64,000 bases of DNA from Actinomycetota bacterium (GTDB taxonomy: Bacteria; Actinomycetota; Acidimicrobiia; Acidimicrobiales; VFJN01). This document shows, piece by piece, positions 3,036 through 18,540 of the stretch; the stretch's first letter is position 1; the number at the start of each line of letters is the position of its first letter. The DNA lies in assembly GCA_049325515.1 (NCBI GenBank), contig JBMOLI010000001.1, forward strand, positions 577,171-641,170. The letters run 5' to 3'. A program made the position numbers and the translations under genes. Below the pieces are notes generated by a model that made no database searches, was not told where the DNA came from, and saw only the letters and a list, made by a program, of their open reading frames with translations.

Positions 3036-3644
3036 TCACTCCACGACGAGCGATGCGCGCAGCAGCGCCAACAGCTCGTCGCGGCGGCGCACCAGCGACG
3101 CCAGGCTGCGCTCCTCGCCGAAGGCGCGCAGCACCTCCACCTCCGTCGCCAGGCCGGCAACCATCGAGTAGGCGGCGAGCAGCAGCAGGCGCGGATCGTG
3201 GCGCCTCATGCGGCCGGCGTCCATCTCATCTTCGAGGTAGCCGGCGGCGCGGTCGACCAGCGGCTGGAGCTGCGTGAGCAGGCGACTGGATGCTGGCGGG
3301 CCCAGCCTCGTCACCTCCCGCATGAAGCCGAGCATGGTGGGGTGGCGCGCCGCGAGCCTGAACATCACCCGCACGATCGCCTCGACGCGGTCAAAGCCCT
3401 CACCCGCCCGAGCCAGTCCTCGCTCGAGTCGCCCCGTCACCTCTTCGCCGCAACGATCGACGACGGCCTCGAGCAGCGCCTCCTTCGACGGGTACCAATA
3501 GAGGATCGTCTGCTTGCGGATGCCGAGCAGGCGAGCAAGGTCGTCCAGGGAGGTGGCCTCGTATCCGCGGGTGCCGAACTCGGCCATCGCTGCAACGAGG
3601 ATGCGGTCGGCCGTCGCTCTCTTCGTCTCCCCACCCGAGGCCAT
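3036..3644 (-). CDS. TetR family transcriptional regulator
   Basis: N-terminal TetR helix-turn-helix: ILVAAMAEFGTRGYEATSLDDLARLLGIRKQTILYWYPSKEALL. Divergent from the lipid-type operon that starts at 3668. Confidence 0.9.
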   Translation of the reverse strand: MASGGETKRATADRILVAAMAEFGTRGYEATSLDDLARLLGIRKQTILYWYPSKEALLEAVVDRCGEEVTGRLERGLARAGEGFDRVEAIVRVMFRLAARHPTMLGFMREVTRLGPPASSRLLTQLQPLVDRAAGYLEDEMDAGRMRRHDPRLLLLAAYSMVAGLATEVEVLRAFGEERSLASLVRRRDELLALLRASLVVE

Positions 3645-3659
3645 CTACCAGATGGTAGA
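3644..3659. promoter_or_regulatory. Candidate TetR operator: inverted repeat TCTACCA-GA-TGGTAGA
   Basis: Perfect 7-bp arms with a 2-nt spacer. The site lies in the 23-bp gap between the divergent TetR start (3644) and the reductase start (3668), overlapping the first base of the TetR start codon. Confidence 0.45.
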
Positions 3660-3667
3660 CAGATGCG

Positions 3668-6022
3668 GTGATCCCCGACGTCCTAGCGGGCAAGCGCATC
3701 GCCATCACCGGCGGAACTGGCTTCCTCGGCACCGCACTGATCGAGCGGCTGCTCCGAAGCGTCCCCGGCTGTGAGCTCGTGCTGCTGATACGCCCGGGCA
3801 AGCGAGCGACGGTCGAGCAGCGTGCCAAGCGGGAGATCTTCAGCAACAACGCCTTCGACCGGCTGCGCTCCGAGATGGGCAAGGACGGCTTCACGGCCAT
3901 GGTCGCGGAGCGGGTCACGCCCATCGCCGGTGACGTGGGCACCGACGGCCTGGCGCTCGAGGATGCTGGCAGCGAGCTGCTGGCGGCGTGCGACCTCGTG
4001 ATCCACTCGGCCGCCACGGTCTCGTTCGACTCGCCGCTAGACAGCGCCGTCGAGGTGAACCTGCTCGGCCCCAGCCGGATCGTCGCCGCACTTCACGACT
4101 TGGGCGTTGCGCCACACCTCATCTCGGTGTCCACGTGCTACGTGGCGGGGAACCGTCGGGGCGCTGCTCCGGAGATCCCCGTGCACGAGAGCCCCTTCTT
4201 CGTCGACGTCGACTGGCGCACCGAGGTCGATGGCGCGCGCCGTGCCCGCTCCAACGCAGAGGCTGACAGCCGCCGCCCGGCCGCGCTGACCGGGTTCCGC
4301 AAGGAGGCACACACGGAGATCGGTGCTGCCGGCGTGCCCGCCCTGGCCGCCAAGACCGAGCAGCGAAGGGCGGCGTGGGTTCGCGAGCAGATGGTGGAGG
4401 CGGGCCGCGCTAGAGCGGCGTCGCTCGGCTGGCCCGACGCCTACGCGTACACCAAGGCGCTCGGCGAACGAGCCCTGCTCCAGAACAGAGGCGCTGTGCC
4501 GGTCACGATCGTGCGGCCCTCGATCATCGAGTCGTCCATCCAAGAGCCGTACCCAGGCTGGATCCGCGGCTTCCGCATGGCCGAGCCCGTCATCATCTCC
4601 TACGCCCGCGGGCTCCTGAAGGAGTTCCCCGGCGTGCCCGAGGGCACCATCGACGTCATCCCCGTCGACCTCGTCGTCGCAGCGATCATCGAAGCCGCCG
4701 CATCGCCGGCGCCCGCCGAGCCGGCCATCACCCAGGTCGCCTCGGGGTCGATCAACCCGCTGCGCTACCGGCACCTGGTCGACATGGTGCGCGCCTTCTT
4801 CACCGAGCACCCCATCTACGACGCCGAGGGCCAGCCGATCATCGTGCCCGAGTGGTCGTTCCCGGGTCGTGGGCGAGTGCAGCGCCAGCTCGAGCGGGCC
4901 AAGTCAGCCATAGAGCGAGGCGAGACCGCCCTCCAGTCGCTCCCGCTTCGTGGCAAGCAGGCGTCGTGGGCAGCCACGCTGGAAGAGAAGCGCGAGGAGG
5001 TCGAGCGAGCGCTCGCCTACGTCGAGCTCTACGGCGCCTACGCCGAGTGCGAGGCGATCTACGGCGTCGACAACCTCCTGGCCCGATGGGAGCGGATGGC
5101 CCCCGAGGACCAGGCCACGTTCTGCTTCGACCCGCGTGTGATCGACTGGGATCACTACGCACCGAGCGTTCACCTGCCATCGGTGGTCGAGCACTCCCGC
5201 GTGCGAACGACGCCGGGTGGCCGAGCCGGTGAGCGCCGCGAAGACCGCCTTCGCCGCCAGGTGCTCGACCCGGCGCGCCACTTCGCCGCCTTCGACCTGG
5301 AGAACACCCTGATCGCGTCGAACGTGGTGGCCTCCTACTCCTGGCTGGCGACGCGACGGCTGCCACGCGAAGACCGCGTCCGCTTCGTGGCGCAGACGCT
5401 CCGCGAAGCACCCCGCCTGCTCGCGCTCGATCGTCGCGACCGGAGCGACTTCCTGCGCCACTTCTACCGCCGCTACGAGGGCGCCGACATCGAGCAGCTC
5501 GAGGCCGACGCTGTGGAGATGTTCAGCGACCTCATCCTCACCAAGTCGTTCCCTGCCGCGATCCGGCGAGTGCGGGAGCACAAGCGCCTCGGCCACCGCA
5601 CGGTCCTGATCACCGGCGCGCTCGATCTCGCCATCAAGCCGCTCCGACCGCTGTTCGATGATGTGGTCGCACCGTCGCTGGCACGCCGAGCGGATGGCAC
5701 CTACCGCGGCGAGCTGACCGACGTTCCCCCGACCGGTGAGGCGCGCGCGTCGGCCCTGTTCGACTACGCAGCCGAGCACGGCTTCGATCTCGCGGAGGGC
5801 ATCGCCTACGCCGACTCCACCTCCGACCTGCCGATGCTGGAGGCGGTCGGCTTCCCCGTCGCCGTCAACCCCGAGACCCGCTTGGCCGCCTTGGCCCGCA
5901 AGCGCGGCTGGCTCGTCGAGCACTTCGACAAGGCCAAGGGGGGCCCCAACCCGCTTCTGCCGATCGGCCCGGAGTGGGGACGCCCGCGCCGCCGCCACGT
6001 CGGCAAGGTGGCGACCAGATGA
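3668..6022 (+). CDS. Fusion protein: fatty acyl-CoA/ACP reductase (NAD_binding_4 type SDR) + HAD-IB hydrolase domain
   Basis: GTG start. The N-terminus has ITGGTGFLGTALIERLL (GxxGxxG) and YAYTK (YxxxK), as in fatty acyl reductases. The C-terminal third has HAD motifs FDLENTL (motif I, with Glu in place of the second Asp) and YADSTSDLPML (motif IV). Confidence 0.85.
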   Translation: MIPDVLAGKRIAITGGTGFLGTALIERLLRSVPGCELVLLIRPGKRATVEQRAKREIFSNNAFDRLRSEMGKDGFTAMVAERVTPIAGDVGTDGLALEDAGSELLAACDLVIHSAATVSFDSPLDSAVEVNLLGPSRIVAALHDLGVAPHLISVSTCYVAGNRRGAAPEIPVHESPFFVDVDWRTEVDGARRARSNAEADSRRPAALTGFRKEAHTEIGAAGVPALAAKTEQRRAAWVREQMVEAGRARAASLGWPDAYAYTKALGERALLQNRGAVPVTIVRPSIIESSIQEPYPGWIRGFRMAEPVIISYARGLLKEFPGVPEGTIDVIPVDLVVAAIIEAAASPAPAEPAITQVASGSINPLRYRHLVDMVRAFFTEHPIYDAEGQPIIVPEWSFPGRGRVQRQLERAKSAIERGETALQSLPLRGKQASWAATLEEKREEVERALAYVELYGAYAECEAIYGVDNLLARWERMAPEDQATFCFDPRVIDWDHYAPSVHLPSVVEHSRVRTTPGGRAGERREDRLRRQVLDPARHFAAFDLENTLIASNVVASYSWLATRRLPREDRVRFVAQTLREAPRLLALDRRDRSDFLRHFYRRYEGADIEQLEADAVEMFSDLILTKSFPAAIRRVREHKRLGHRTVLITGALDLAIKPLRPLFDDVVAPSLARRADGTYRGELTDVPPTGEARASALFDYAAEHGFDLAEGIAYADSTSDLPMLEAVGFPVAVNPETRLAALARKRGWLVEHFDKAKGGPNPLLPIGPEWGRPRRRHVGKVATR

Positions 6023-6035
6023 CAGTGCTCAGCTC

Positions 6036-7190
6036 ATGAAGGCGCTCGTCTTCTCCCGCAAGCCGGTGAAGTTCGCCGCCGCCATGGTCGCCGGTCGCGT
6101 CTCACCCGGGGCCGGCGCGCGGGTCGGACCGCTTGCGCTGCGGGACACGGACCCTCCGGAGCTACCAGGGCAGGGCTGGGTCAGAGTGCGACCGCGGCTG
6201 GCGGGCATATGCGGATCCGACCTGGCAACGATCGACGGCACCTCGTCCCGGTGGTTCGAGCCGATCGTGTCGTTCCCGTTCACGCCCGGCCACGAGATCG
6301 TCGGCGAGCTCGACGACGGCGCTCGCGTCGTCGTCATCCCGGTGCTGAGCTGTGTGGCGAGAGGCATCCAACCTCCCTGCGAGGCCTGCGCGGACGGCCG
6401 CATCAACCACTGCGAGCGCCTGGGCCACGGGCAGCTCGAGCCGGGCTTGCAGTGCGGGTTCTGCGAGTCGACCGGTGGGGGCTGGTCCACCTTGATGGTG
6501 GCTCACGAGTCCCAGCTCATCAGCGTGCCCGACGGGATGTCCGACGAGGCCGCCGTGATGGTCGAGCCGACCGCCTGCGCGGTCCACGCGGCCACCCAGG
6601 TGGAGGCCACTCGAGTCGCGGTCATCGGTGCCGGCACCCTCGGCCTGCTCACCATCGCGGCCCTGAGAGCTGTGCGCCCCGACATCGAGCTGCTCGCAAC
6701 CGCCAAGCACCCGCACCAGCGCGCGCTGGCGCTCGAGCTCGGCGCGGACGCGGTCGTCGCTCCCGGCGAGCTCGAGCGGTCCGTTCGGGCTCGCACAGGC
6801 TCGATGCGGCTCGACTCTGGTCAGCTGACGGGCGGGATCCCAGCGGTTGTCGACTGCGTCGGCTCGGCCGACTCCATCGCCCAAGCGCTGCGCATAGCGG
6901 CACCGGGCGGCAGGATCCACGCAGTCGGCATGCCTGGTGTGACCACCGTCGATCTGACCCCGCTGTGGCAGCGGGAGGTCTCGTTGCGCGGCACCTACGC
7001 CTACGAGCGCGGCGACTTCGAGCGGGCGATCGGCCTCGTCGAGGCGCTCGACCTCGGCAGGCTGGTCAGCGCCACCTACCCGTTGCGCCGCTATGAGGAC
7101 GCCATCGCGCACGCAGCGTCAGCTGGCTCGCGCGGGGCCGTCAAAGTCGCCTTCGACCTCCGGCCGGAGAAGGAGAGGGAGAGCATCTGA
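6036..7190 (+). CDS. Zinc-dependent alcohol dehydrogenase family (MDR) oxidoreductase
   Basis: Internal ATG (residue 101) of track ORF 5736..7190. Motifs seen: MKALVF, GICGSDL, PGHEIVGEL, structural-zinc cysteines (CEACADGRINHC) and a Rossmann VIGAGTLG. Confidence 0.85.
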   Translation: MKALVFSRKPVKFAAAMVAGRVSPGAGARVGPLALRDTDPPELPGQGWVRVRPRLAGICGSDLATIDGTSSRWFEPIVSFPFTPGHEIVGELDDGARVVVIPVLSCVARGIQPPCEACADGRINHCERLGHGQLEPGLQCGFCESTGGGWSTLMVAHESQLISVPDGMSDEAAVMVEPTACAVHAATQVEATRVAVIGAGTLGLLTIAALRAVRPDIELLATAKHPHQRALALELGADAVVAPGELERSVRARTGSMRLDSGQLTGGIPAVVDCVGSADSIAQALRIAAPGGRIHAVGMPGVTTVDLTPLWQREVSLRGTYAYERGDFERAIGLVEALDLGRLVSATYPLRRYEDAIAHAASAGSRGAVKVAFDLRPEKERESI

Positions 7191-8785
7191 TGCCCCGCCC
7201 AGGGTTCGTCCTCGAGGTCGATCGATCGACCCCACCGATCCTGTTCCACCACGGTGAGTCGCTGCGGCTCGAGCGGCTGCCTGCCGGGCGCTCCCGGGTG
7301 CTGTACCCCGGAGAGCCCCTCGACGAGCTCGACGACGTCGACGGCGAGATCCGCCACGCGCTCGACAACCCGCTCGGCGACAGCGCGCCGCTGAGGGCGC
7401 TGCTGCACCCCGGGATGAAGCTGACGATCGCGTTCGACGACATCAGCCTCCCCCTCCCGCCGATGCGCCGGCCCGACGTCCGCCAGCGCGTCATCGAGGC
7501 GGTGCTCGATCTGGCCGCCGCAGCGGGAGTCGACGACGTCCACCTCATCGCAGCACTCGCACTGCACCGGCGCATGACGGAGGCCGAGCTGAGGCATGCG
7601 GTCGGAGACCGCGTGTACGACGCCTTCGCACCGCACGGCCTCCTCTACAACCACGACGCGGAAGACCTCGAGAACCTGGCCTTCCTCGGCACGACGCGCC
7701 ACGGGGAAGAGGTGGAGATCAACAAGCGTGCCGCCGACAGCGACCTCATCGTCTACGTGAACATCAACCTCGTGTCGATGGACGGCGGCTGGAAGTCGAC
7801 CGCCACCGGTCTGTCGTCGTACCGCTCGCTCCGACATCACCACAACGTGAGGACGATGGAGCAGTCGCGAAGCTTCATGGATCGCCACGCCAGCGAGCTG
7901 CACTCGAGCAACTGGCGCATGGGTGAGGTGCTCCGCGACGCGGGCGTGAAGGTCTTCCAGATCGAGACGACGCTCAACAACGACACGTTCGGCACCTCTG
8001 GGCCGATGTCGGTGCTGCAGAAGCGCGAGTGGGAGTGGACGGCGCGCGACCGCGCCACGTTCATCGGGATGAAGGCCGGCCTCGACCGCCTCCCGATGAA
8101 GGCACGCCGCAAGATCTTCAACTCCTGGCTGGCGCCCTACGGCGTGACCTCGGTGCAGGCGGGCGAGGTGGAGGCGGTGCATGAGGTGACGACAGCCAAC
8201 GTCTTCGCCCAGCAGCTCGTGCCGGTCGAAGGCCAGACCGACATCCTGACGATGGGCCTACCCTACATCTGCCCGTACAACGTCAACTCCGTGATGAACC
8301 CGATCCTCGTGATGTGCCTGGGCCTCGGCTACTTCTTCAACATGTACCGCGGCCGGCCCCTCGTGCGTGAGGGCGGTGTGCTGATCATGAGCCACCCCAC
8401 GCCGTGGGAGTTCAACCCGGTCCACCATCCCAGCTACATCGACTTCTTCGAGCAGGTGCTCGCCGACACGACCGACCCGGCCGAGATCGAAGCCCGCTAC
8501 GAGAAGCAGTACGCCGAGGACGAGTGGTACCGCCACCTCTACCGCACCAGCTACGCCTACCACGGGGTCCATCCGTTCTACATGTGGTACTGGGGCTGCC
8601 ACGGCATGGCCCACGTCGGCAAGGTGATCATCGTCGGCGGCGAGCCGCGCGCGGTCCGGCGCCTGGGGTTCACGCCGGCCTCCACCCTCACCGACGCGCT
8701 GGAGATGGCATCCGACGTGGTCGGCCGCGACGCCACCATCACCCACCTCCACAACCCTCCGATCGTCATGGCAGACGTCCGATGA
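7190..8785 (+). CDS. LarA-like (lactate racemase N-terminal domain / DUF2088) protein
   Basis: 531 aa. The ATG overlaps the ADH stop (TGATG). By-eye colinearity with LarA as I recall it: LDNPLGDSAPL, KLTIAFDDISLPLP, LIAALALHRRMTEAEL, INKRAADSDLIV, MDGGWKS. Confidence 0.6.
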   Translation: MPRPGFVLEVDRSTPPILFHHGESLRLERLPAGRSRVLYPGEPLDELDDVDGEIRHALDNPLGDSAPLRALLHPGMKLTIAFDDISLPLPPMRRPDVRQRVIEAVLDLAAAAGVDDVHLIAALALHRRMTEAELRHAVGDRVYDAFAPHGLLYNHDAEDLENLAFLGTTRHGEEVEINKRAADSDLIVYVNINLVSMDGGWKSTATGLSSYRSLRHHHNVRTMEQSRSFMDRHASELHSSNWRMGEVLRDAGVKVFQIETTLNNDTFGTSGPMSVLQKREWEWTARDRATFIGMKAGLDRLPMKARRKIFNSWLAPYGVTSVQAGEVEAVHEVTTANVFAQQLVPVEGQTDILTMGLPYICPYNVNSVMNPILVMCLGLGYFFNMYRGRPLVREGGVLIMSHPTPWEFNPVHHPSYIDFFEQVLADTTDPAEIEARYEKQYAEDEWYRHLYRTSYAYHGVHPFYMWYWGCHGMAHVGKVIIVGGEPRAVRRLGFTPASTLTDALEMASDVVGRDATITHLHNPPIVMADVR

Positions 8786-9723
8786 CGACGTCTGTGAACC
8801 GCAGCGTCCGCTATGCGAGCGCGGTGCTGCACAGACGTCGTTTGTCGTTCCCGTATGCGGCGCCGACGGTGCCGGGCGGGGTCGAGGCACCACCGAAGGC
8901 ACGCAAGCTGGGTGCCGACTACGACACGGACTGGGCCCGCCGCTTCCCAGCGCGCTTCGCACGCCTCGCGCTGCTCGAGGGCGTGATGCGTCCGGCCGTG
9001 GCGGCGCTGGGCGCGCCCGAGCGCGACGGCATCGACCGGCTCGCCGGCCTCACCGACGGTCCCGTGATCTTCGCCGGGAACCATCACAGCCACCTCGACA
9101 CACCCGTCGTGCTCACGTCGATACCGGAGCCGTGGCGCCACCGCGTCTTCGTCGGCGCTGCGGCCGACTACTTCTTCCGCACGAGGATCACCTCCGCGCT
9201 GTCCGCCCTCGTCATAGGCGCCATCCCGATCGAGCGCTCGAAGGTGACGCGCCGGTCAGCAGACCAGGCGGCGTCGCTCATCCTGCACGGCTGGTCGATG
9301 TTGATCTTCCCCGAGGGCGGCCGCTCACCTGACGGCTGGGGCCAGCCGTTCCGCGGGGGTGCCGCATACCTCGCGAGTCGCTGCGGGGTCCCCGTCGTTC
9401 CGCTTCACATCGAGGGCACAGCACGCATCCTGCGCAAGGGAGCCAAGGTCCCGACGCCCGCCAACGTGCGCATCACCTACGGTCTCCCCCTCCACCCTGC
9501 CGAGGGCGAGAGCGCGGCCCGCTTCGCCGAACGGATCGAGCGAGCGGTAGCCGAGCTGGCGGACGAGGCGACCACCGACTGGTGGCAGGCACGGCAGCGG
9601 GCCGCTGCCGGCGCCACGCCCCCGCTCACCGGCCCGGCTGCTCCAGCGTGGCGGCGTTCTTGGGCGCTTGGTGACCGGAGCCGGAAGCGGCGTCGGCAGG
9701 CTCGTGCGTGGCCGAAGCTCTGA
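8782..9723 (+). CDS. Lysophospholipid (PlsC-family) acyltransferase
   Basis: Internal ATG (residue 127) of track ORF 8404..9723, in an ATGA overlap with the upstream stop. HX4D motif (NHHSHLD) and FPEGGRS motif are present. Confidence 0.85.
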   Translation: MTTSVNRSVRYASAVLHRRRLSFPYAAPTVPGGVEAPPKARKLGADYDTDWARRFPARFARLALLEGVMRPAVAALGAPERDGIDRLAGLTDGPVIFAGNHHSHLDTPVVLTSIPEPWRHRVFVGAAADYFFRTRITSALSALVIGAIPIERSKVTRRSADQAASLILHGWSMLIFPEGGRSPDGWGQPFRGGAAYLASRCGVPVVPLHIEGTARILRKGAKVPTPANVRITYGLPLHPAEGESAARFAERIERAVAELADEATTDWWQARQRAAAGATPPLTGPAAPAWRRSWALGDRSRKRRRQARAWPKL

Positions 9724-16898: not shown

Positions 16899-18326
16899 TC
16901 AGTCGGTGCCGGGGCGGCGCTCGACCTCAGCCTCCGGATCGCCCTTGTAGCTCGAGGGATAGGTGCGTGCCAGCTCCTCGGCGGTCGGCGTGCGCCGCTT
17001 GCGGGCCTCCGGGGGCAGCAGCTTGGTGATCGCCGCCATGATCTTCCTGGTGTCGGCGTCGGGCGACCGGCCGGTGAGGCCTTCGATCGCCGCGCCGACT
17101 CGCACCGTCACGAGAGGCGGGTTGCGCAGCGCCAGCACGTTCGGCAGGCGCTCGCTGCGCGGCCACACCTTCTCGGTGCCCCAGAGGCCGACCGGTATGA
17201 CGGGTGCACCGGTGAGCGCCGCCAGGCGCGCCGCGCCCCATCGTCCCTTCAGCACAGGATCGAAGAACGCGGGCCCGCGCGGGATGGTGCCCTGCGGCAT
17301 CAACGCCACGATCTCGCCCATCTCGAGCGCCGCCGCGGCGGCTGCGAGGGGCTCGTCTGATCCCGTGCCGCGCTCCACTCGGATGCCGCCCATGGCACGA
17401 GCCAGCTGGCCCACGACCGGGGCGTCGAAGACCTCCTTCTTCCCGAGGAACCGCACGGGGCGGCCTCGCTTGGCGAGGGCGAACCCGAGCGCCAGCGGAT
17501 CGAAGTAGCTGCGATGGTTGCCGACGACGATGGCCGGGCCTTCGGCTGGGATGTTCTCGACGCCGGAGACGTCGAAGCGCGCGTAGGGGAACAGCTCGGG
17601 TCGTGCCAGAGCCATGACGGCCTTCTGGGGTTCGAGCCCGAGTACCGGCAGCTTGGGAACGCCAGCGGGCACGTCGAGGTGCACGACGGGCCAGCGGCGC
17701 AGCAGCGCGACGACGAGCATGCGCGGGTCGGGGTTGACCACGATCGGGTGCTTCACCGCACTCAACATCGGGAGGTCGTAGAAGCTGTCCGAGTAGGCCC
17801 AGCTGTCGGCTAGGTCGTGCCCGTGCTCACGTGCCCATTCCTGGATCGCGCGCAGCTTGCCAGCGCCCCAGACGAACTCGCCGTCGAGGGTGCCGTCGTA
17901 GAAGCCATCGGTCTCGCCATATCGGGTGGCGACGACGTCGTCGAAGCCCAGCGCGTCGGCGAGAGGCTTGACGAGGTCATACGGCGTCGTGGTGGCCAGC
18001 ACCAGCGCTCGCCCCGCGGTGCGGTGCTCGTCGATGATCGGGCGCGCGAACGGCTGGATGGTCAGTGCCAGCGTCTCGGCCGCGATCTTGCCGGCCTCCT
18101 GCACGGACGACCGCGCCCAGCCCGAGGCGAACCGGACAGCGCGACGCGTGAGCTCCATGCTCGGTCGGTTCTCACCGAAGATGTCGTAGAGCCGGTAGAC
18201 GATCTGCTCACCGGGGATGCTGCGGTCGGTGACCCCCGCCTGCTTCAGCGCCGCACCGATCACGGGACCAGACGCACCTCGCAGCAAGGTCCGGTCGAGG
18301 TCGAAGAACACGGCACCGTTGCTCAC
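16899..18326 (-). CDS. Bifunctional HAD-IB phosphatase / PlsC-type acyltransferase (M. tuberculosis Rv2483c-like architecture)
   Basis: HAD motif I FFDLDRTLL near the N-terminus, YSDSFYDLPML, then the acyltransferase HX4D motif (NHRSYFDP). The start is uncertain: I use the GTG at 18326 (VSNGAVFFDLD), while the track ORF runs to 18458. Confidence 0.82.
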   Translation of the reverse strand: MSNGAVFFDLDRTLLRGASGPVIGAALKQAGVTDRSIPGEQIVYRLYDIFGENRPSMELTRRAVRFASGWARSSVQEAGKIAAETLALTIQPFARPIIDEHRTAGRALVLATTTPYDLVKPLADALGFDDVVATRYGETDGFYDGTLDGEFVWGAGKLRAIQEWAREHGHDLADSWAYSDSFYDLPMLSAVKHPIVVNPDPRMLVVALLRRWPVVHLDVPAGVPKLPVLGLEPQKAVMALARPELFPYARFDVSGVENIPAEGPAIVVGNHRSYFDPLALGFALAKRGRPVRFLGKKEVFDAPVVGQLARAMGGIRVERGTGSDEPLAAAAAALEMGEIVALMPQGTIPRGPAFFDPVLKGRWGAARLAALTGAPVIPVGLWGTEKVWPRSERLPNVLALRNPPLVTVRVGAAIEGLTGRSPDADTRKIMAAITKLLPPEARKRRTPTAEELARTYPSSYKGDPEAEVERRPGTD

Positions 18327-18540
18327 GAACGGGACCGTACACGGCACCCGGAGGGGCTGTGGCGGGACGCGGAAACGCCGACCCGGGGGGAGGGTCGGCG
18401 TCCCGCTACTTGCGGCGGGCCGGAGGGGGGATCCGGCCTCTGCACGCTTGGAGGGCACCTAGGGGTGCTGCCTCTTGTGAGCAACACGGTAAGCCTCCGC
18501 AAGCAATCCGTCAAACAGTTGTTACCGATGGGTACCATCT

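Follow-up and report, generated by a model that had tools for sequence, protein, structure and literature searches.

The closest described relative of the system reported here is the elb operon of the myxobacterium Myxococcus xanthus (described by Lorenzen et al. 2014, as reviewed in PMC9131029 and PMC13012113). Because elbA to elbE correspond to MXAN_1531 to MXAN_1527 (PMC13012113), elbC is MXAN_1529. Ether lipids are lost in elbD, elbB and elbE mutants, the published model has the ether formed by ElbD alone, and ElbC is described as a "protein of unknown function" (PMC9131029). In the LarA survey of Desguin et al. 2020, MXAN_1529 is a member of group 15, a myxobacterial group whose gene neighbors are HAD proteins (100%), long-chain acyl-CoA synthetases (75%) and NAD-epimerase-type SDRs (150%, i.e., more than one per locus) (PMC7583248). 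Group 14 of the same survey has as members Franean1_4168 (Frankia), Afer_1430 (Acidimicrobium), YM304_22240 (Ilumatobacter) and Rxyl_2107 (Rubrobacter); its neighbors include PlsC (COG0204), HAD (COG0560) and Zn-dehydrogenase (COG1063), each at 88%, and thioester reductase (COG3320) at 50%, and both groups were given as being of "unknown function" (Table S1, PMC7583248). Here, we describe a TetR-linked four-gene operon in a window of 64,000 nucleotides (i.e., the whole stretch of DNA that was analyzed: contig JBMOLI010000001.1, positions 577,171 to 641,170, of the Actinomycetota assembly GCA_049325515.1). By sequence comparison, this operon is a rearranged, re-partitioned actinobacterial relative of elbB-elbD, and its product is probably a 1-O-alkylglycerol (ether) lipid.

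The features of the window that enter the argument are the following:

3036-3644, minus strand: TetR-family repressor gene, 202 aa (TetR_N match)
3645-3660: candidate TetR operator, a perfect 16-bp palindrome read from the sequence, TCTACCA-GA-TGGTAGA
3668-6022, plus strand: G1, fusion of a fatty acyl-CoA reductase (FAR) with a HAD-IB domain, 784 aa (NAD_binding_4, HAD)
6036-7190, plus strand: G2, Zn-dependent medium-chain dehydrogenase (MDR), 384 aa (ADH_N, ADH_zinc_N)
7190-8785, plus strand: G3, LarA homolog, 531 aa (Lar_N, NF052592)
8782-9723, plus strand: G4, PlsC/AGPAT-type acyltransferase, 313 aa (Acyltransferase, Pfam)
16899-18458, minus strand: HAD-IB/PlsC fusion of the Rv2483c type, second copy in the window

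Three of the four operon genes match ElbB, ElbC and ElbD domain for domain, which supports the proposal of the first-pass annotation that the operon encodes a lipid pathway of its own, gated by TetR and built on the same logic as ElbD-type alkylglycerol synthesis. The M. xanthus locus has the order SDR, HAD, Lar_N (MXAN_1529), a 1470-aa multidomain protein (ElbD, with NAD_binding_4, Sterile, AMP-binding, PP-binding and Acyltransferase domains) and SDR. G3 is 52% identical to ElbC over 526 aa (full length, 537 bits); the reductase part of G1 (aa 2-506) aligns with ElbD aa 9-539 (30% identity, E 1e-50), its HAD part (aa 540-748) with ElbB aa 6-215 (35% identity, E 5.5e-30), and G4 aa 100-231 with ElbD aa 1270-1403 (38% identity, E 3e-19). 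Both clusters are thus co-directional sets of a FAR, a HAD protein, a LarA-like protein, an AGPAT-type acyltransferase and an NAD(P) dehydrogenase, but they are partitioned differently: in elb the FAR is joined to an acyl-CoA synthetase, acyl carrier protein and acyltransferase (ACS-ACP-AT) within ElbD, whereas here it is joined to the HAD domain and the acyltransferase is a separate gene. In place of the two SDRs (ElbA and ElbE) there is a Zn-dependent MDR dehydrogenase, G2, which gave no blastp match to either of them and has no elb homolog. The present operon also adds its own TetR repressor and putative operator, and HAD motif I reads D-L-E-N-T rather than the D-V-D-G-T of elb. When ElbD aa 561-1230 was searched with tblastn, no match was found in the actinobacterial clusters, the only match being to the divergent locus L138.

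What was already known is the elb kind of cluster and the group 14 gene context, the latter from the 2020 supplement (PMC7583248), and what is variant here is the architecture: the FAR is fused to HAD, the acyltransferase stands free, the dehydrogenase is of the MDR type, control is by TetR and the ACS-ACP module is missing. The first-pass annotation knew of no assigned product for such clusters; the association of group 14 with PlsC, HAD, Zn-dehydrogenase and reductase had, however, been tabulated, uninterpreted, by Desguin et al. 2020 (Table S1). A literature search found no paper joining "lactate racemase" with "ether lipid" and none naming MXAN_1529, and returned nothing relevant on DUF2088 with lipid or on Acidimicrobiia with ether lipid.

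The first-pass annotation saw no obvious place for the LarA-like protein, but G3 turns out to be the ortholog of ElbC, a LarA-like (DUF2088) protein and core elb gene product. Its score against NF052592 (LarAH14/15/16, where LarAH denotes LarA homologs) is 895.7 bits (cut-off 740), and by sequence it is a LarA homolog of Desguin group 14. Its identity to the Frankia member of that group is 67% over the 200 available residues, and that to Rxyl_2107 is 54%; it has in common with the group the signature D, L/I, H, gap, gap, ..., K, H, and its locus has the same PlsC, HAD, COG1063 and reductase neighbors; there is no essential difference, and G3 is a further member. In a Foldseek search with the AlphaFold model of G3 (pLDDT 87, pTM 0.88), all top matches were LarA-family structures (E 1e-32 to 4e-21), with 9q3k first (TM 0.77/0.85) and LarA structures following. 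Similarly, a profile of G3 orthologs matched 9q2u/9q3k and 9q3j at E 2e-44, and classical LarA (5huq) only at 1e-10. The residues of G3 predicted to hold the cofactor and to act in catalysis, with roles assigned by alignment to 9q2u read with PMC12611868, are these:

D84: bound to the ribose of the cofactor (LarA_Sp Asp73; LarA Asp72)
H126: catalytic His (LarA_Sp His115; LarA His108)
K202: covalent tether of the cofactor (LarA_Sp Lys195; LarA Lys184)
H217/H218: nickel ligand (LarA_Sp His221; LarA His200)

All of these are invariant across 91 G3 orthologs. The position of the carboxylate-binding Arg75, however, is occupied by leucine (Leu87 in G3) in 91/91 orthologs, the loop bearing the second catalytic His (His174) is deleted, and equivalents of Tyr294, Gln295 and Lys298 are likewise missing; the leucine and the loop deletion match the Desguin signature of groups 14 and 15. 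From its sequence and model, G3 probably works with a nickel-pincer nucleotide and relies on a single catalytic His.

The closest solved structures, LarA_Sp and LarA_Bw (9q2u/9q3k and 9q3j; ~20-23% identity), resemble G3 in having the tethering Lys, the nickel-binding His, the ribose-binding Asp and one catalytic His. Both are proteins of ~500 aa, and neither is a lactate racemase (PMC12611868). They have Asn for the second His and Lys at the Arg75 position, where G3 has the loop deletion and Leu, and their genes sit among glycolysis/triose-phosphate genes, whereas G3 sits among lipid genes. As judged from the ligand as modeled, 9q3k and 9q3j appear to bind a phosphorylated polyol. A LarAH15 identified as a gluconate epimerase (PMC11770544) was considered and set aside as uninformative for groups 14 and 15, the protein being from Phytophthora and apparently numbered by another scheme.

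Clusters of this kind, which the first-pass annotation had expected in other actinobacteria, occur across the Acidimicrobiia and in other actinobacterial classes. The survey of gene neighborhoods that it had suggested found the gene order kept in 90 Acidimicrobiia loci, and this identity of order argues that the arrangement is non-random. The order G1-(G2)-G3-G4 was kept in 14 genomes, which represent 11 families of the order. Among the 90 loci, G3 was present in 90, G4 in 85, G1 in 81, TetR in 56 and G2 in 55, many of the missing genes reflecting contig ends. Members of the LarAH family scored above the cut-off in 36 of 151 near-complete genomes sampled from the phylum, and the other classes retain the FAR-HAD fusion, the Zn-dehydrogenase (ADH), the LarAH protein and PlsC, with TetR often downstream. 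Across the order, identity was 68-92% for G3 versus 45-86% for G4. Judged by these sequences, G3/ElbC is the best-conserved member of the cluster, and it stays linked where its partners change (PlsY for PlsC, SDR for MDR).

The exchange of PlsC for PlsY is seen in Rubrobacter, where two loci have the order PlsY, FAR-HAD, Zn-ADH, one to three inserted genes and LarAH; the LarAH protein of one (L133) is 95% identical to Rxyl_2107, and that of the other (L134) 73%. PlsY is the glycerol-3-phosphate sn-1 acyltransferase, so the Rubrobacter partner points to a substrate based on glycerol-3-phosphate. In L133, genes for a protoglobin and a MarR-type regulator lie between the Zn-dehydrogenase and the LarA homolog (L133:10811-12069, minus strand), and immediately upstream of the LarA homolog there is a MOSC gene, confirmed by Pfam (L133:9569-10240, minus strand). 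A putative operon for 1-O-alkylglycerol phosphate, like that of other aerobic ether-lipid producers, has reportedly been recognized in this group. Rubrobacterales membranes are, in the words of a title, dominated by mixed ether/ester lipids (Sinninghe Damste 2023).

The source genome encodes the genes for the nickel-pincer cofactor, with larB and larC at C13:382469-384999 and larE at C12:98404-99171 (234.5, 193.5 and 297.6 bits, respectively, all over the curated cut-offs). Because it has exactly one LarA homolog, G3, the larBCE pathway appears from gene content to be kept for G3 alone. The two near-complete relatives that lack LarAH (G030 and G032) also lack larB, larC and larE. Two Frankia-like genomes each have a single larC1-like gene, of the nickel-insertion type, and it is situated ~1.6 kb downstream of G4 (L127:4645-5499, minus strand; G094:C1:135560-135997). 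Among cultured organisms, Aquihabitans sp. G128 and Salinilacustrithrix flava EGI L10123 contain the cluster together with larC, Ilumatobacter coccineus is a further carrier of the cluster, and Corynebacterium glutamicum, a control, has larC. Directly downstream of larC in the source genome is a gene called, from reading its translation, as encoding a MOSC domain (C13:381392-382375, minus strand); this adjacency and the one in L133 may point to a helper that handles sulfur for the nickel-pincer cofactor, or may be coincidental.

The G1 fusion comprises a reductase domain (aa 2-506, nt 3671-5185; Pfam NAD_binding_4, PF07993, E 1e-55) and a HAD-IB phosphatase-like domain (aa 537-755, nt 5276-5932; Pfam HAD, E 7e-25; TIGR01490, 103.8 bits, cut-off 98.3). 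Its match to the Sterile domain (PF03015) reached 29.1 bits, under the cut-off of 35.4, and its reductase resembles PDB 7eoz, annotated as "fatty acyl-CoA reductase" (E 1.6e-66); from sequence, the product may be either a fatty alcohol or an aldehyde. All of the motifs quoted in the first-pass annotation are present in the operon proteins and are invariant or nearly so in 55-91 orthologs. In G1 these are GGTGFLG (aa 15-21), YAYTK (aa 259-263) and F-D-L-E-N-T (aa 542-547), and across 77 orthologs GxTGFxG, YxxxK, D543/E545/T547 and DSxSD do not vary. The glutamate that had been singled out in HAD motif I is real, Glu545 occupying the Asp+2 position in 77/77 Acidimicrobiia orthologs (D-L-E-N-T). 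However, several other classes have FDMEGT or FDVEGT, and the canonical FD(L/V)DGT occurs in Frankia-like genomes, Rubrobacter and ElbB. Because Asp and Glu vary by lineage among orthologs, the glutamate reads as a conservative exchange that follows lineage and affects the acid/base position, rather than as a sign of an altered reaction; the nucleophile D543, T547 and the motif IV DSxSD are intact.

G4 matches the Pfam Acyltransferase family (E 2e-17) and contains H101-x4-D106 and F-P-E-G-G (aa 176-180), with HX4D and PEGGR invariant across 85 orthologs. The more usual HAD-IB/PlsC fusion noted elsewhere in the window also exists (16899-18458) and, by sequence, is probably a housekeeping enzyme. 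The idea that the operon is its paralog does not hold as a close relationship: G4 is only 26% identical to the PlsC domain of the fusion, and the HAD domain of G1 is 41% identical to that of the fusion over 138 aa only.

The nearest solved structures to the G2 dehydrogenase are ketose reductase and xylitol, sorbitol, L-idonate and L-threonine dehydrogenases; it thus resembles ketose/polyol reductases rather than fatty-aldehyde reductases. Its Cys/His/Glu zinc ligands and GxGxxG motif are kept in 55 orthologs. Characterized relatives of G2 interconvert a secondary alcohol and a ketone beside a CH2-O group, and polyol-type chemistry of this kind is, by analogy, what an acyl- or alkyl-dihydroxyacetone phosphate (DHAP) reductase requires. 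G2 is missing from ~25 of the 90 clusters, in which G1 adjoins G3. Both of the G2-less genomes that we examined have a copy elsewhere (56-58% identity), which indicates that the dehydrogenase is unlinked rather than lost. The surroundings of these relocated copies (in G035 and G039) were uninformative, showing nothing more than a radical-SAM/SPASM gene in one of the two. The source genome itself carries a full-length paralog of G2 (C4:289654-290877, minus strand; 37% identity).

The product of the TetR gene matches TetR_N (E 4e-13) and, weakly, TetR_C_24, and an ortholog adjoins G1 in 56 of the 90 related loci (in other classes it lies downstream of G4). The start codons of TetR and G1 are divergent and 23 nt apart, and most of this interval is occupied by the palindrome at 3645-3660, i.e., the candidate TetR-binding DNA TCTACCAGATGGTAGA. 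Of 55 orthologous regions between TetR and G1, 49 contain CTACCA-NN-TGGTAG or TTACCA-NN-TGGTAA, some of them twice, and the palindrome is therefore likely to be the TetR operator. Its right half (TGGTAGA) ends 8 nt ahead of the GTG of G1, a start position that is conserved across relatives (GTG or ATG, then ATC), and this layout suggests that the G1 transcript is leaderless or near-leaderless, with its -10 region inside the operator. Given the 23-nt spacing, at least one of the two divergent transcripts must be leaderless, or the promoters must lie within coding sequence. Bound to an operator of the form TCTACCA-NN-TGGTAGA, TetR would hold the operon off until a lipid ligand arrives.

Direct reading of the gene junctions bore out the first-pass description of four co-directional genes in tight succession. 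A 13-nt gap separates G1 from G2 (G1 TGA at 6020-6022, G2 ATG at 6036), G2 and G3 overlap in TGATG (G2 TGA at 7188-7190, G3 ATG at 7190-7192), and G3 and G4 overlap in ATGA (G4 ATG at 8782-8784, G3 TGA at 8783-8785). Scans of the locus for promoters and terminators gave no signal above chance; the G+C content of the window is ~70%. The flanking genes, for a D-Ala-D-Ala ligase, a PilZ protein and a PQQ-type glucose/sorbosone dehydrogenase, look unrelated, so that the unit spans TetR to G4.

In the pathway that we propose for this operon, the reductase domain of G1 would convert acyl-CoA to a fatty alcohol or aldehyde, and the nickel-pincer cofactor of G3 would take the C2 hydride of a glycerol-3-phosphate derivative, enabling formation of an ether bond at C1. 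G2 would reduce a DHAP-type ketone intermediate, G4 would acylate the sn-2 position, and the HAD domain would strip the phosphate to give alkyl-acylglycerol. The eukaryotic AGPS route (FAR1, GNPAT, AGPS, alkyl-DHAP reductase, AGPAT and phosphatidic acid phosphatase) requires the same set of activities, i.e., fatty alcohol supply, glycerol-phosphate acyltransferase, ketone reductase and lipid-phosphate phosphatase. It differs in having the FAD-dependent AGPS, which is absent from this operon and whose role we infer to have been taken over by the LarA homolog. A CarF-type desaturase (PF10520) was not found in 21 relatives, so alkyl rather than alkenyl ethers are expected, although control genomes were negative too and absence is unproven.

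A tentative part of this proposal, and one that we regard as rather doubtful, is that G3/ElbC itself creates the ether bond by temporarily taking up the C2 hydride from a glycerol-phosphate derivative. This could operate in two ways. In the first, the transient ketone would permit acyl/alkoxy exchange with a fatty alcohol, and the hydride would afterwards be given back, making G3 a surrogate for AGPS plus reductase; in the second, the hydride would move to the alkyl carbon of a hemiacetal or oxocarbenium formed with a fatty aldehyde, leaving alkyl-DHAP to be reduced by a G2-type dehydrogenase. Such hydride transfer is consistent with several features, though proven by none: one catalytic His only, the lack of a carboxylate site, a ligand resembling a phosphorylated polyol as modeled in the nearest solved structure, genomic linkage to PlsY or PlsC, and a reductase of the polyol type.

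Several observations weigh against ether lipids as the product or against this role for G3. In M. xanthus, elbC has never been mutated separately, and the reductase and acyltransferase of ElbD are without in vitro demonstration (PMC9131029). The Frankia LarAH14 protein, with its cofactor loaded, was inactive in all seven 2-hydroxyacid assays, although these were the only reactions assayed (PMC7583248), and Pontiella has elbD homologs although ether lipids were not detected in it (PMC11868695). Our literature search found no lipid data for Acidimicrobiia, none of the five operon proteins has an AMP-binding or PP-binding domain (Pfam), and co-transcription of G1 to G4 is inferred from overlapping codons only. 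In addition, no larC was detected in four near-complete genomes with an intact LarAH cluster (G035, locus L023; G056, locus L139; G115; and G157, the last three belonging to one family), and in G035, which is 98% complete, larB and larE were undetected as well. Such carriers might scavenge the cofactor, possess biosynthesis genes that are not recognized, or use G3 in a cofactor-independent function.

Among other explanations, the one that survives best is that ether lipids are made but that G3 only supplies a precursor, through a hydride shuttle of the glycerol-3-phosphate/DHAP type or a stereo-inversion, while the reductase and acyltransferase form the ether. This agrees with the model that credits ElbD alone (PMC9131029) and with the few genomes that retain the cluster without larBCE. 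However, G3/ElbC is the best-conserved protein and remains linked even when its partners are swapped, and a single-His LarA is ill suited to stereo-inversion. Moreover, we know of no acyltransferase or reductase chemistry that gives an ether, and we consider this explanation unlikely.

Still less likely, in our estimate, is that the operon makes and esterifies fatty alcohols, yielding wax-ester-like or unusual acylglycerol storage lipids, with side roles for the LarA-like protein and the dehydrogenase. The closeness of G1 to an alcohol-forming fatty acyl-CoA reductase (7eoz) and the presence of an acyltransferase would suit such a product, as would the source organism, a Microthrixaceae-like member of the Acidimicrobiales, whose family is related to the lipid-storing Microthrix. 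However, PF01553 acyltransferases use acceptors of the glycerol-phosphate type, the operon contains no wax synthase of the WS/DGAT type, and its most conserved gene is the LarA homolog, which would have only a side role. The acyltransferase linked in Rubrobacter, PlsY, acts on glycerol-3-phosphate, and the homologous elb is genetically tied to ether lipids, not waxes (PMC9131029). Least probable is that G3 is a 2-hydroxyacid racemase or epimerase and that the operon attaches or processes a hydroxy-acid, such as glycerate or a 2-hydroxy fatty acid, in a pathway to an unusual lipid or a 1,2-diol. The name of NF052592, "NPN-dependent hydroxyacid isomerase" (NPN, nickel-pincer nucleotide), would agree with this, and every characterized LarA homolog acts on 2-hydroxyacids, but G3 lacks the carboxylate/phosphate-binding Arg75, the second-His loop and the Tyr294, Gln295 and Lys298 equivalents, the Frankia protein failed in the hydroxyacid assays, its group and group 15 were left without a function (PMC7583248), and the 9q3k and 9q3j proteins, encoded among triose-phosphate genes, seem to bind a phosphorylated polyol.

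The fields of LarA enzymes and of ether lipids have so far been linked only by uninterpreted gene-context data in a supplementary table (PMC7583248). To that context, the present analysis adds the Rubrobacter/PlsY link, a conserved predicted operator, the Asp/Glu interchange in the HAD domain, the linkage of larC in Frankia-like genomes, the unlinked ADH copies and the cluster-bearing genomes without larC. To our knowledge, the formation of alkyl-glycerol ether bonds in aerobic bacteria without AGPS has been an open question since the elb description of 2014, and ElbD by itself has never been shown to form one. That the best-conserved gene of the cluster encodes a LarA-family protein with one catalytic His, no carboxylate site and apparently the sole claim on larBCE makes this a directly testable question. 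If G3/ElbC does form the ether bond, it would be the missing ether-bond former of aerobic bacteria whose pathway is independent of AGPS. Lipid metabolism would thereby gain its first nickel-pincer enzyme, which would also be the first with demonstrated activity beyond 2-hydroxyacids. Acidimicrobiia occur in large numbers in soil, lake and ocean habitats, in sponges and in activated sludge. Our reading of the operon predicts both ether lipids and a nickel requirement for their synthesis in this class, and would bear on which organisms count as sources of the non-isoprenoid alkylglycerols that are used as environmental biomarkers.

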